Source: Bacteroidetes bacterium GWF2_35_48 (lineage in GTDB: Bacteria > Bacteroidota > Bacteroidia > Bacteroidales > GWF2-35-48). From it: DNA of 64,000 nt. Every line of letters begins with the position of its first letter. Positions within the stretch are counted from its first letter, which is position 1. Below are positions 28,024-50,079 of the stretch, one piece after another. The stretch covers positions 1,726 to 65,725 of the forward strand of contig MEOG01000093.1 in assembly GCA_001769125.1 (NCBI GenBank). The letters run 5' to 3'. The position numbers were made by a program, and so were the translations under genes. The notes under the pieces were generated by a model. That model had not been told where the DNA came from. It made no database searches and saw only the letters and a list, made by a program, of their open reading frames with translations.

Positions 28024-28044
28024 CCTGTCTGCCGACAAGGCAGG
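28024..28044. repeat. REP-like CCTGTCTGCCGACAAGGCAGG
   Basis: Same family as the hairpin at 42491/42856-42870 and the CCTGCC..GGCAGG units at 50017-50058. Confidence 0.7.
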
Positions 28045-41864: not shown

Positions 41865-42275
41865 TTAGTCAATAAAGAAAAAGAAAAAAGCAGCGGCTGC
41901 ATATTCTTTCTTTACTCCCTGTGCGCTTCCTATGATAGAACCATTTTTACGAACATCGCCGTTGGATTCGATTTTTCCAACAATAGAGCCATTCTTACGA
42001 ACATCGCCGTTGGATTCAATTTTTCCAACAATAGAACCACTTTTGCGAATATCGCCGTTTGATTCGATTTTTCCAACAATACTGCCGCTTTTGCGAACAT
42101 CACCGTTGGATTCAAATTTTCCGACAATACTTCCATTAATTCTTACATCGCCATTGGATTCAACTTTTCCGACAATGCTGCCGTTTTTACGCAAATCCTG
42201 TGCTGTTGCCTGATTGGTATTTAAAACCATAACAGCAAATAAAAAAACAAATGATAAAAAAAGTCCTTTTTTCAT
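41865..42275 (-). CDS. Exported 16-aa repeat protein (beta-flower-like)
   Basis: Signal peptide MKKGLFL..ATAQ; D(V/I)RKNGSIVGKIESNG x5.5; hydrophobic tail YAAAAFFFFFID. Confidence 0.75.
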   Translation of the reverse strand: MKKGLFLSFVFLFAVMVLNTNQATAQDLRKNGSIVGKVESNGDVRINGSIVGKFESNGDVRKSGSIVGKIESNGDIRKSGSIVGKIESNGDVRKNGSIVGKIESNGDVRKNGSIIGSAQGVKKEYAAAAFFFFFID

Positions 42276-42444
42276 AATATTTAGTATTAATTTAATTTTT
42301 GGCAATTTACAAAAAAAATCAAAACGGCTGACAATGAGCGATAACTTTTTCAAAAGACTATATTAAAAATCATAAAAAATTTGGTTTCAGGTAAAAATCA
42401 GAAGCTTGTTTTAACCTGTATTATTCATGACCTTTAATAAAAGT

Positions 42445-42486
42445 GTTGCAGGTTGCAGGTTGCAGGTTGCAGGTTGCAGGTTGCAG
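42445..42486 (+). repeat. (GTTGCAG) x6 perfect heptamer array; inverted CTGCAAC units at 42915-42935
   Basis: Direct reading of the sequence. Confidence 0.95.
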
Positions 42487-42501
42487 GTTACCTGTCGGCA
42501 G

Positions 42502-42855
42502 CTACCGTGTGGACACATCTTTGAGAAGAGAAAAAGTTTATTAAAAACTCCTGTCTTCTCGTACAATACAATGCTGTGATTTTGTCACAAAATTTGCAAG
42601 CATTATTTTGTACAAAATAAACTCTGTGATGTAGCAAATTTTCCGCCAAAATCTTTAATTTACATTTGTTTTAGAACCCCCGAGCTTTAGCTCGGGGTTA
42701 TTCACCTGCCAGCCGATTCACTTGCTCAATTAGGCAAGGCAAGCAGGTAAATCCCCCAAGCGGGATAAGCTCTAAAGGGTCATATTAAACGCATTTTTAT
42801 CCGCTAAGGCGGATGCGAGCGTATTATAATAAAACGATTTGTGTCCACACGGTAG
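42502..42855. mobile_element. 354-bp MITE with 16-bp perfect TIRs and a 10-bp target-site duplication
   Basis: TIRs CTACCGTGTGGACACA (42502-42517) / TGTGTCCACACGGTAG (42840-42855); direct repeat CTGTCGGCAG at 42492-42501 and 42856-42865; no ORF of 60 aa or more inside. Confidence 0.88.
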
Positions 42856-42979
42856 CTGTCGGCAGACAGGGCTGCAAGTAACGTGTTGAAATATCAAATA
42901 TCATTGCAAACAACCTGCAACTTGCATCCTGCAACAAAGGGTAGAAATTTATGAATTGAATAAGTTAAATATTTGTTTG

Positions 42980-44251
42980 CTACATTGCCTTCATTCTTCC
43001 CCATAATTTTTTACTTTGTTCCTGAGAAAAACGCAGAATATCTTTTTCATCCACAGATTGAAGCTGCCAGTCTTTTACAATAAGTTTTCCTGAAGATATC
43101 ACATGCCTCACATGACGGTTTTCGAGACCAAAAATGAAATGTCCTAAAAAATTATTCTGATTGAAATCAGTCGGAGAATCATAATCCAGCACTACAAGAT
43201 TGTTTTCAGCATCTCCGGAGAAATTATTTTCTTTAATATAACGGTGTACATTCCTGAAGCGTTTGTATGCTCCCGGGTAATCTATTGCATCAAATCCCTG
43301 ACCTACATAAAAAGCAGTTTTCGCACTACGCAGCATATCGCTATACATTCCGTCGGTTCCAAGCATAATATTTTCTCCCAAACCGCACGAATTAAAATAT
43401 CCCACATTATTGTTCAGGTTGCTTTCACAGTTCTGTACGACCCAAACCGGAGAAATTCGTATCAGTTCTTTTTCTATATCATCAAGGTGAAGGCAATGAC
43501 CCAAAATTGTTTTACCGGAATTCAACGCACCTGCTTTTGAAAGCCGCTCAACAACAGTCATTCCATATTCTTTTTTGCAATGCTCTTCGTCTGATTTGTC
43601 CTCTGCAACATGAATATGAATCCCTGAATTGTATTTTTGTGATAATTTAACAGCCTTATTCAGAGTATTTTCTCCAACAGTAAAGCTTGCATGCAAACCC
43701 ACAAGTGCCTGTTTTTTCTTCATGTATTCTTCTGTTTCTTCATGTCCTGATGTCGCTTTGTCTAATCCATCGCGGTCTGTAATTTCGTAACATAATAAAT
43801 GCGATACACCTACTTTTTCAAAAGCTTGTGCAATAATTTCAAGAGAACCTTTTATATAATTTGGAGATGCATGATGATCAATAACAAAGGTAACTCCATT
43901 TTTCGCGCAAGCCATAGCGGTTACTAATGCAGAGGCTTCTATTGATTCTTTGTCCAAGCATTTGTCGAGTGTCCACCAAATATATTCCAGAATTTCAATA
44001 AAATTTCCCGGAGATTTTTTCGGAGCGCCCATGCCACGTGCCAGAGCAGAATAAACATGATGATGGCCGCATGCAAAAGAATGTGTTACATATTTACCTG
44101 AACAGTCAATTACATTATCCCCAGCATCGGGTTGCGCATTTTTAAGAAAAGTTATTGTTCCATTTATCCCTTCAGAAACACGAATATCTGTTTTAGAAAA
44201 TTCCAGTGTTTCAGCATTGATGTAATTTGTATTTTTTAATAATATTGACAT
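42980..44251 (-). CDS. ssnA: Amidohydrolase, SsnA-like putative aminohydrolase
   Basis: CGHHHVYSALARGM, WWTLDKCLD, VIDHHASP, LCYEITDR, GLHASFT, HIHVAE, LGHCLH, NNNVG, LGTDG. Confidence 0.75.
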   Translation of the reverse strand: MSILLKNTNYINAETLEFSKTDIRVSEGINGTITFLKNAQPDAGDNVIDCSGKYVTHSFACGHHHVYSALARGMGAPKKSPGNFIEILEYIWWTLDKCLDKESIEASALVTAMACAKNGVTFVIDHHASPNYIKGSLEIIAQAFEKVGVSHLLCYEITDRDGLDKATSGHEETEEYMKKKQALVGLHASFTVGENTLNKAVKLSQKYNSGIHIHVAEDKSDEEHCKKEYGMTVVERLSKAGALNSGKTILGHCLHLDDIEKELIRISPVWVVQNCESNLNNNVGYFNSCGLGENIMLGTDGMYSDMLRSAKTAFYVGQGFDAIDYPGAYKRFRNVHRYIKENNFSGDAENNLVVLDYDSPTDFNQNNFLGHFIFGLENRHVRHVISSGKLIVKDWQLQSVDEKDILRFSQEQSKKLWGRMKAM

Positions 44252-49961: not shown

Positions 49962-50079
49962 GTTGCTGTTGCAGGTTAAAAAGGTTGCAGGTTGCATGTT
50001 AACCGCTGGTTGAGCGCCTGCCTGTCCGCCTGCCTGCCGGCGAGGCAGGGTAGGCAGGGAGTCGAAACCAAGGTTGCAG
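49962..50079. repeat. GTTGCAG units flanking a triple-nested REP (50007-50070)
   Basis: TGGTTGAGCG[CCTGCCTGTCCG[CCTGCCTGCCGGCGAGGCAGG]GTAGGCAGG]GAGTCGAAACCA. Confidence 0.85.

Follow-up and report, generated by a model that had tools for sequence, protein, structure and literature searches.

We found that a 354-bp insert in the window (the whole 64,000-nucleotide stretch of DNA analysed here) is very probably a non-autonomous transposon: a MITE or, more precisely, a cassette in which unrelated DNA rich in hairpins is linked to its parent insertion sequence, IS-A, only by about 20 nt of IS-A sequence at each end. It would be mobilised by a Tn5-like transposase acting in trans. The two 16-bp terminal inverted repeats (TIRs) of the insert are complementary at 16/16 positions, and a perfect 10-bp direct repeat, CTGTCGGCAG, stands at both of its borders, with junctions (marked by slashes) that read ...GGTTAC-CTGTCGGCAG/CTACCGTGTGGACACA-TCTTT on the left and CGATT-TGTGTCCACACGGTAG/CTGTCGGCAG-ACAGGG on the right (Table 1). 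When up to three mismatches were allowed, the 16-mer was still found at these two sites of the window only, compared with 0.05 sites expected from shuffled sequences. An earlier note on this DNA had described perfect 16-bp TIRs, a length of 354 bp and a 10-bp direct repeat, all of which were confirmed by the sequence readout and the mismatch search. The repeat CTGTCGGCAG is itself nearly palindromic, and a repeat finder also reports a 26-nt, 92% inverted repeat at this position; the family data below establish the 10 bp as a target duplication (TSD) that lies outside the element. The open reading frames (ORFs) that overlap the window copy are spurious, reaching at most 53 aa, with no transposase gene among them.

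Table 1. Positions, strands and properties of the element, its surroundings and related sites in the window.
Feature	Position	Strand	Remark
MITE, 354 bp	42502-42855	-	IRL-to-IRR reading; co-oriented with both flanking genes
IRL-type end	42840-42855	-	CTACCGTGTGGACACA then AATC; matches left end of parent IS (..ACACAAATATT)
IRR-type end	42502-42517	+	CTACCGTGTGGACACA then TCTTT; matches right end of parent IS (..ACACATCTTTTT)
TSD, left copy	42492-42501	+	10 bp, CTGTCGGCAG
TSD, right copy	42856-42865	+	10 bp, CTGTCGGCAG
Right arm of target palindrome	42866-42870	+	ACAGG, flush with TSD
Heptamer array (GTTGCAG)n	42445-42490	+	Left part of the repeated host sequence hit by the MITE
Inverted heptamer units	42911-42936	+	CAACCTGCAAC...; right part of the host repeat
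Cargo module	42578-42697	+	Box 1, variable stretch, box 2, hairpin; ~40 copies in genome
Cargo box 1	42578-42597		GATTTTGTCACAAAATTTGC
Cargo box 2	42634-42653		GCAAATTTTCCGCCAAAATC; separated from box 1 by a 36-nt variable stretch
Hairpin	42678-42697		CCCCGAGCTTTAGCTCGGGG
CCTGCC...GCAGG unit within MITE	42705-42747	+	Target-family arms CCTGC/GCAGG around 33 nt of other sequence
Small hairpin near IRL end	42799-42814	+	ATCCGC-TAAG-GCGGAT (ATCCGCTAAGGCGGAT)
Unoccupied target-type REP	28024-28044	+	CCTGT-CTGCCGACAAG-GCAGG
Unoccupied target-type REP	50029-50049	+	CCTGC-CTGCCGGCGAG-GCAGG
Bactofilin / beta-flower-like gene	41865-42353	-	Downstream neighbour; start codon 139 bp from insertion
Amidohydrolase family gene	42980-44251	-	Upstream neighbour; stop codon 115 bp from insertion

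The window copy belongs to a multicopy family. Across the assembly of its own genome (5.98 Mb in 142 contigs, 34.8% G+C), the 16-mer occurs about 68 times and bounds 31 properly paired elements of 140-388 bp, none with coding capacity. A TSD with at most one mismatch flanks 30 of the 31 copies; its sequence differs from copy to copy, and its length is 9 bp (n = 2), 10 bp (n = 13), 11 bp (n = 14) or 12 bp (n = 1). Both the identification of the insert as a MITE and the proposal to search the genome for further TIR copies, made in the earlier note, were borne out by these 31 pairs of ends and their duplications. Beyond the 16 bp the two ends are not equivalent, as all 31 copies combine one AAT(A/C) end with one TCTT/TCAT end, which is also the arrangement in the IS. 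The copies form subfamilies of 13, 7, 5 and 2 members plus singletons, with differing interiors. In the five-copy subfamily of the window element, copies C13, C5 and C35 are about 97-99% identical outside one indel region (C13 is 97% identical to the window copy, and C5 and C35 are 99% identical over the cargo module described below), and this near-identity points to a probably recent spread.

Uninterrupted versions of the occupied sites also exist. We removed the MITE and one repeat copy in silico and searched the same genome for the rebuilt site, and found for the window locus an empty paralogue (C43:5553-5662) that is 90% identical over 110 nt with no gap across the junction, a match that takes in the heptamer array and the palindrome and runs on for some 50 nt. 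Two empty paralogues were likewise found for the copy on C46 (on C31, 96.6% identical, and on C122, 95.7%), both gapless at the junction and one carrying the identical 11-mer once. These paralogous uninterrupted sites, aligned without gaps, show that the insertion gave rise to the duplication. An orthologous empty site was found in neither of two same-genus relatives, in which the counterparts of the two flanking genes are on separate contigs and show an identity of only 71-83%, and an exact-match search of metagenome contigs for the empty allele gave 0 matches.

The parent insertion sequence and the source of transposase

We screened 401 sampled genomes of the order for the 16-mer and found it repeated in five, namely the own genome, one genome of the same genus, and members of three further families. 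Outside the own genome, nearly all copies lie about 100-135 nt from contig ends, a pattern expected because a multicopy IS breaks short-read assemblies, and the sequence inward of them is of two kinds, either the start of an ORF (MNKISHKPNF...) or a reverse-complemented ORF end. An exact-pattern scan of species-representative genomes then yielded a complete IS-A of 1,461 bp on contig L079 of another Bacteroidales MAG (positions 248-1708), with TIRs identical to the 16 bp of the window element and a single 471-aa ORF whose TAG stop forms the last three bases of the element; the IRR-type end within the parent IS contains the last codons of the transposase gene and its stop. IS-A copies range in size from 1,457 to 1,461 bp. 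Another candidate IS copy (G232:C216) was rejected as a 68-nt remnant only.

The IS-A protein matches the Pfam families Tnp_DNA_bind (PF14706) and DDE_Tnp_1 (PF01609), both above their gathering scores, as well as the NCBIfam model NF033590 (transpos_IS4_3, IS4 family transposase), for which it scores 318 bits where the cut-off is 160. Nearly the full length of the protein aligns with the Tn5 transposase (E = 2e-22), with the catalytic D, D and E residues (QDTS, EDREGD, YRQRWYIEQVFRLLK) and the Y(2)R(3)E(6)K motif (in YRQRWYIEQVFRLLK) in register with those of Tn5. More than 4,000 homologues, about 4,400 in all, are present in the protein collection, mostly on contigs of about 1.5 kb as is typical of repeats, and among those with a name are 'IS4 family transposase' proteins of Pedobacter species. 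The ends of the MITE therefore bound a 1.46-kb IS with a Tn5-like DDE/YREK transposase, in agreement with the IS4-like enzyme that the earlier note had proposed from the ends and the duplication. Its further expectations, of an autonomous copy with a transposase and of a transposase encoded elsewhere, also held, as the IS on L079 is such a copy and the transposase is present in other Bacteroidales, including the same genus, and absent from the own assembly.

Beyond the 16-bp TIR, each MITE end shares 4-7 more nucleotides with the 1,461-bp IS, in an IRL- or IRR-specific manner. Since the similarity between IS-A and the MITEs stops at the terminal 21-28 nt, the MITEs are IS ends placed around unrelated DNA, and not deletion derivatives of the IS. 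Non-matching flanks were seen in one MITE copy (C84) and in several IS copies (L079, L103, L115, L141 and L224), which we attribute to putative recombination between copies.

A search of the own assembly returned no IS-A sequence beyond the TIRs, and the ORFs beside its unpaired TIRs were housekeeping genes, with no transposases among them. The sole related transposase gene in this assembly is that of another element, IS-B, which is 42% identical to that of IS-A. IS-B is seen there as three ends at or near contig breaks, its TIR (CTACCGTGTACCCATA) differs from the IS-A TIR at 4/16 positions, and its full-length reading frame contains an in-frame TAA at codon 24, both in the genome and in an identical complete copy on a metagenome contig. 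On account of the divergent TIR and the in-frame stop, IS-B was rejected as the helper transposase. A pairing of the IS-B ends on C30 and C82 through a common 9-mer was also set aside as unsafe, since the 9-mer is part of a REP consensus and an identical metagenome contig links the C30 flank with the C2 flank. Because the assembly is without IS-A and its cousin IS-B carries an in-frame stop, the MITE copies may be orphaned at present, with the helper transposase either recently lost or missing from the bin.

Target palindromes and their recognition

The IS and the MITEs obey one target rule, in which the length of the TSD follows the arm spacing of a palindrome. Across the MITE sites, the duplicated stretch is exactly the spacer that separates a left CCTGY from a right RCAGG. 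In 29 of 30 sites an exact CCTGY/RCAGG arm stands flush with the TSD on at least one side, both arms are exact in 15/30 (at spacings of 10, 11 and 12 bp), and most of the remaining arms are one base off the consensus, where the calculated probability of a flush CCTGY by chance is about 0.001 at the genome's base composition. At the window locus the left arm is degenerate (GTTAC in place of CCTGY), and the right arm ACAGG alone is canonical. Palindromes of the form CCTGY-N9-12-RCAGG occur at 243 sites in the genome, compared with about 18 expected, and a handful of spacer types, CTACCGGACAG and CTTGCCGGTAG among them, predominate.

Intact IS copies are placed in the same manner. An IS on a 380-kb contig reads CCTGC-CTACCGGCAAG/IS/CTACCGGCAAG-GCAGG, with a TSD of 11 bp; a second intact IS reads CCTGC-CTACCACAG/IS/CTACCACAG-GCAGG, with a TSD of 9 bp; and a Pedobacter relative that is 57% identical reads CCTGT-CTACTGTAG/IS/CTACTGTAG-GCAGG. 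Further IS relatives have duplications of 10 and 11 bp, one of them (L112) lying in a gene with a left arm CCTGC only, and in the same-genus genome and two further families the IS ends found at contig breaks adjoin CCTGY-N9-11. The proposal of the earlier note that the insertion was targeted to a REP is upheld by the flush arms of MITEs and IS alike; tabulating the duplications against the hairpins, as it had suggested, places the flush arms at a fixed position and the insertion sites non-randomly, and related uninterrupted palindromes are present in the window at or close to the positions that it had given (Table 1). The perfect hairpin CCTGTC-GGCA-GACAGG that it took as the target belongs to the right REP family, but the landmark is CCTGY-N9-12-RCAGG with the TSD as its spacer, and that hairpin is a local variant.

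In the proposed mechanism, a Tn5-like DDE transposase supplied in trans would bind the two non-identical ends, IRL (..ACACAAAT) and IRR (..ACACATCTT), cut the element out, and join its 3' ends immediately 3' of CCTGY on each strand of CCTGY-N9-12-RCAGG, after which repair of the staggered gaps would duplicate the spacer (10 bp in the window). The cut-and-paste chemistry is here predicted by homology to Tn5, and we infer both the recognition of the arms by the transposase and the mobilisation of the MITEs in trans by the IS-A enzyme.

We then considered diverged relatives in metagenomes, which were scanned with an IS-B-type TIR; lone matches to CTACCGTGTACCCATA were discounted as possible chance, and paired ends only were retained. 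Both ends and enough flank were available for 27 elements (179-364 bp for the MITEs, 1.42-1.47 kb for the IS), and a direct repeat of 8-11 bp flanks 13 of them. The five nucleotides outside the repeat are mutually inverted (at least 3/5 matches) in 12 of the 13, compared with 3/13 for control positions moved 6 nt outward. Arms are rich in GC and vary from element to element (GCGCTC/GAGTG, CCCCT/AGGGG, TCCTC/GAGGA, CCCCG/CGGGA), and the proteins of the full-length members are only 45-55% identical. These diverged relatives keep the TSD-as-spacer rule with different arms. It is conceivable, if doubtful, that a large Tn5-like clade, common in Bacteroidota and found in many metagenomes, selects its targets by the geometry of short GC-armed palindromes instead of a fixed sequence, joining at the arm/spacer boundaries and so duplicating the spacer of 9-12 bp. 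If so, relatives could follow whatever REP family their host carries, and a DDE transposase would be capable of structure-guided or rapidly retargetable target capture.

Were the target read as structure, the transposase would capture an extruded hairpin or cruciform, or any inverted repeat rich in GC whose arms stand about one helical turn from each other, and would join at the stem-loop junctions, such that the TSD equals a loop of any length. The tracking of arm spacing (9-12 bp) by TSD length in MITEs and IS is in line with such capture, as are the metagenomic elements with the related TIR CTACCGTGTACCCAYA, whose TSDs of 9-11 bp are spacers of palindromes with quite different arms. We nevertheless consider this reading unlikely. 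Stems of 5-7 bp with loops of 9-12 nt extrude poorly from duplex DNA, the arms in the IS-A clade are always CCTGY/RCAGG from Bacteroidales to Pedobacter, and the one-armed insertions (the window locus, L112 and the G023 pair L041/L050) fit a sequence-specific reading of half-sites; moreover, the transposases of the elements with other arms are so diverged that their specificities may simply have diverged as well. Because the arms are constant in the IS-A clade and one-armed insertions occur, we favour half-sites that are probably read by sequence.

The 30 MITE sites and the IS sites in several genera provide a natural data set for the mechanistic question of how a Tn5-like transposase sets its strand-transfer stagger at arms 9, 10, 11 or 12 bp apart. 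For annotation, a widespread IS of Bacteroidota is identified together with its precise target rule. A large part of the short repeats that lie between genes in this genome is also accounted for. Beyond the stagger question, the element is ordinary selfish DNA.

The cargo module and the orientation of copies

The 354-bp element as a whole folds far better than shuffled sequences on either strand (z ~ -9.5), and the three internal hairpin features listed by the earlier note are all present (Table 1). One of them closes a cargo module with the consensus of a first box, GATTTTGTCAYAAAATTTGC, about 35 variable nucleotides, a second box, GCAAATTTTYCGCCAAAATC, and a hairpin, ACCCCGAGC..GCTCGGGGT. 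Of the module copies in the own genome, 22 lie inside MITEs of the window family and 18 elsewhere, some of the latter within a second MITE family with the ends TTCAGAACTCCTGA. Most copies also carry a terminal hairpin plus T-run, TTCGACTCCnnnGGAGTCGTTTTT, and the window copy is without this feature. Smaller REPs are nested in the hairpin loop of the module, and several copies contain an inserted CCTGCCTGACCGGCAAGGCAGG unit.

The two 20-nt boxes are invariant while the module copies are otherwise about 25% diverged, and the module runs antisense to both adjacent genes in 27 cases and sense in 3. Together with the hairpin-plus-T-run of most copies, these features would suit an element that matters to its host as the carrier of a functional module, for instance a gene for a small RNA, a terminator or a regulator site, in this case upstream of the bactofilin-like gene. 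We judge this improbable. Box 2 was found in none of 40 relatives, two same-genus genomes included, and Rfam searches returned only sub-threshold chance matches for the window region (MicX, 21.8 bits for a gathering score of 75, and HEARO, 18.3 bits for one of 83) and nothing relevant for ten module-bearing loci. The module was accordingly dropped as an omega/HEARO-like or other known RNA on the Rfam scores, and as a conserved functional RNA on the absence of box 2 from the relatives. It also rides in the second MITE family, and its window copy is one of those without the terminal hairpin and T-run. Since it matches no Rfam family and its second box is absent from the 40 relatives, the module is lineage-specific selfish DNA, not a conserved RNA.

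Taken together, the MITEs share the orientation of their neighbouring genes in 17 cases versus 4 (p = 0.007). We read the 27:3 and 17:4 biases as the purging of copies whose terminator-like hairpin faces genes, which is a simpler explanation of the module's orientation than a function for the host. The 17:4 bias shows that selection acts on insertions, and all 31 copies are intergenic, with 0 inside a long ORF, as they would be if the association with REPs reflected survival and not target choice, with insertion occurring widely and only harmless insertions into REPs persisting. Such an origin of the pattern is very hard to credit: selection cannot account for joints that fall on one and the same nucleotide of the palindrome in 29/30 sites, and survival leaves unexplained both the same rule in other genomes and the in-gene insertion L112 at a CCTGC arm. 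That a Y1 (RAYT/IS200-like) nuclease has instead spread the element as a composite of REP/BIME type is scarcely credible even with an interior that is a mosaic of REP-like hairpins and folds strongly on either strand, as Y1 elements have neither a target duplication nor terminal inverted repeats, and here 16-bp TIRs identical to those of a DDE-type IS occur with TSDs of 9-12 bp.

Comparison with known systems

Targeting of REPs by IS is established for five families, including IS4 (PMC1525189). ISRm22 of Sinorhizobium meliloti, of the IS4Sa subgroup of the IS4 family, is a REP-targeting member (Tobes & Pareja 2006, PMC1525189; De Palmenaer et al. 2008, PMC2266710), with a 6-bp repeat at the palindrome axis and hybrid flanks ascribed to recombination (PMC1525189). 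The elements described here are similar to ISRm22 in their IS4-family DDE transposase and their REP palindromes; all ISRm22 copies stand at the symmetry axis, their repeat is the palindrome centre, and removal of the IS and one repeat rebuilds the REP, while some copies in both systems have hybrid flanks. Insertion of all or nearly all copies at a fixed position of a REP, and a REP rebuilt on removal of the element and one repeat, characterise type 1 of the REP-targeting IS (Tobes & Pareja); both were found here, with uninterrupted REPs of that type in abundance. The differences are that ISRm22 is alphaproteobacterial, of another subgroup and with a fixed 6-bp repeat, whereas the parent here is IS50/Tn5-like and Bacteroidota-borne, with duplications of 9-12 bp that follow the arm spacing, and the window element is a transposase-less derivative. 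The description of the element as new-looking in the earlier note overstated its novelty, as REP-targeting elements of the IS4 family are already published (PMC1525189).

Other REP-targeting IS belong to the IS3 family (IS1397/ISKpn1, ISPsy8) and the IS110 family (IS621, ISPa11, ISPpu9/10) (PMC1525189). These also insert at one fixed position in the REP hairpins of their hosts, but use other transposase families and chemistries, with repeats of 0-4 bp.

The IS4 family is defined by its DDE and YREK motifs and by duplications of about one helical turn, which are of variable length in some members (PMC2266710). IS-A has both motifs, a match to the curated family model and just one ORF, and its TSD spans about one helical turn. 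Within this family, the IS50 subgroup has ends of the form CW------Y---CA-A--W-, sizes of 1,350-1,550 bp and repeats of 8-9 bp (PMC2266710, Table 1). The end CTACCGTGTGGACACAAATA fits this signature at every specified position, the 1,457-1,461 bp of IS-A fall within the size range, and the full-length alignment, the DDE and YREK residues and the N-terminal Tnp_DNA_bind domain are shared with IS50/Tn5 (PDB 1MUS/1MUH). In contrast to the 8-9 bp repeats and weak target preference of the subgroup, the duplications here are of 9-12 bp, with a mode of 10-11, and insertion is strongly site-specific. IS-A thus resembles the IS50 subgroup without strict membership, because its repeats are of 9-12 bp and not 8-9 bp.

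A further comparison is provided by IS231A, whose target consensus is GGG-N5-CCC. IS231A, of the IS231 subgroup and the Bacillus cereus group, has variable repeats of 10-12 bp and some insertion specificity, and the MIC231 cassettes are non-autonomous, bounded by IS ends alone around unrelated DNA, and moved in trans (PMC2266710). The window element is similar to MIC231 in its IS ends around unrelated DNA, and its family to IS231A in the variable length of the repeat. IS231A and MIC231 differ in subgroup, in their 5'-CAT ends and in host phylum, and the MIC231 cassettes carry passenger genes, whereas the interior of the window element, although unrelated to the IS, is non-coding and holds hairpin repeats only.

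REP-targeting elements of the IS4 family, such as ISRm22, and IS4-derived cassettes, such as MIC231, are already known. What is modestly unusual here is an IS50-like parent with duplications of 9-12 bp, and the strict equality of the duplication with the spacing of the palindrome arms.

Target spacers and the host repeat

In many spacers of the target palindromes (CCTGY-N9-12-RCAGG), among REPs genome-wide and, for example, at window 28029-28039, the initial bases are CTACCG or the final ones CGGTAG. CTACCG constitutes the first six bases of the terminal inverted repeat (TIR), so that IS and MITE junctions read CGGTAG|CTACCG; CTACCGGACAG, more frequent than any other spacer, looks like the TIR without TGTG. 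This likeness may be coincidental, or may stem from imitation of the IS tip or from shared ancestry.

The sequence hosting the window MITE is itself a repeated unit, in which a (GTTGCAG)n array is followed by the palindrome, approximately 40 nt and inverted heptamers; a second copy in the same genome is 90% identical. Similar heptamer flanks occur at target REPs on three further contigs (C64, C129, C84), and CGCAAAG-type units accompany target REPs in a genome of the same genus (locus L035).

Coordinates of the repeats, elements and insertions described in this part (C, contigs of the GWF2_35_48 genome; L, loci)
Feature	Position	Further occurrences
Host repeat unit	window 42445-42490 and 42911-42936	C43:5553-5662
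Inverted-spacer IS flanks	L079:221-247 / 1709-1735	
Lone IRL-type end	L004:1475-1500 = C5:42511-42536	
IS relative in DUF6624 gene	L112:368-1816	
Cargo module	window 42578-42697	~39 further places in own genome
Nested MITEs, examples	L008:1501-1700 (C81:10335-10538)	L009, L026
Second MITE family (TTCAGAACTCCTGA ends)	L013:1385-1665 = C58:11483-11763	5 further paired copies
IS-B, complete copy	L188:898-2366	identical sequence at contig ends C30:9984-11197, C82:162564-162656, C2:1-91

Atypical insertions

Several IS copies (L079, L103, L115, L141, L224) are flanked by inverted rather than direct versions of a REP spacer, as in the pairing of CTGTCAGGTAG with CTACCGGACAG, an arrangement consistent with either recombination or inversion between REP-borne copies or chimeric assembly. 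At the MITE on contig C5, a lone end of the left (IRL) type, with 1 mismatch, adjoins the left copy of the target-site duplication, giving the order TGTGTCTACACGGTAG-CTACCGACAG-[MITE]-CTACCGACAG-GCAGG; here, a second insertion apparently reused the spacer duplicated by an older element that now has a single end. A DUF6624 gene is interrupted, with an 11-bp duplication, by a relative of the IS whose transposase is 59-60% identical to that of the IS. Of the two arms, this site has just the left one, CCTGC, so a single arm seems sufficient for targeting.

The cargo module and a second MITE family

Two inverted 20-nt boxes are invariant among copies of the cargo module carried by the window MITE, and the remainder is ~25% diverged. 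Across the 41 genomes tested the module is confined to its own genome, where its orientation relative to both neighbours is strongly biased (antisense 27 versus sense 3). MITEs of this genome also display Russian-doll nesting: within the module, the loop of the CCCCGAGC hairpin harbours an inserted GAGCGAAGTCGAA-type hairpin, and several copies, but not others, contain a CCTGCCTGACCGGCAAGGCAGG REP inserted between the hairpins of the module. The module with its two boxes recurs inside some copies of a second MITE family, for whose ends 91 end-like matches were found genome-wide.

IS-B, a second Tn5-like IS

The genome carries a second Tn5-like IS, IS-B (1,469 bp; TIR CTACCGTGTACCCATA), whose ORF is full-length apart from an in-frame TAA at codon 24 (LLNEKR*EKRGSQ). 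Its transposase is 42% identical to that of the parent IS, and the REP family around it, GCRCTC-N9-GAGYGC, differs from that targeted by the window MITE.
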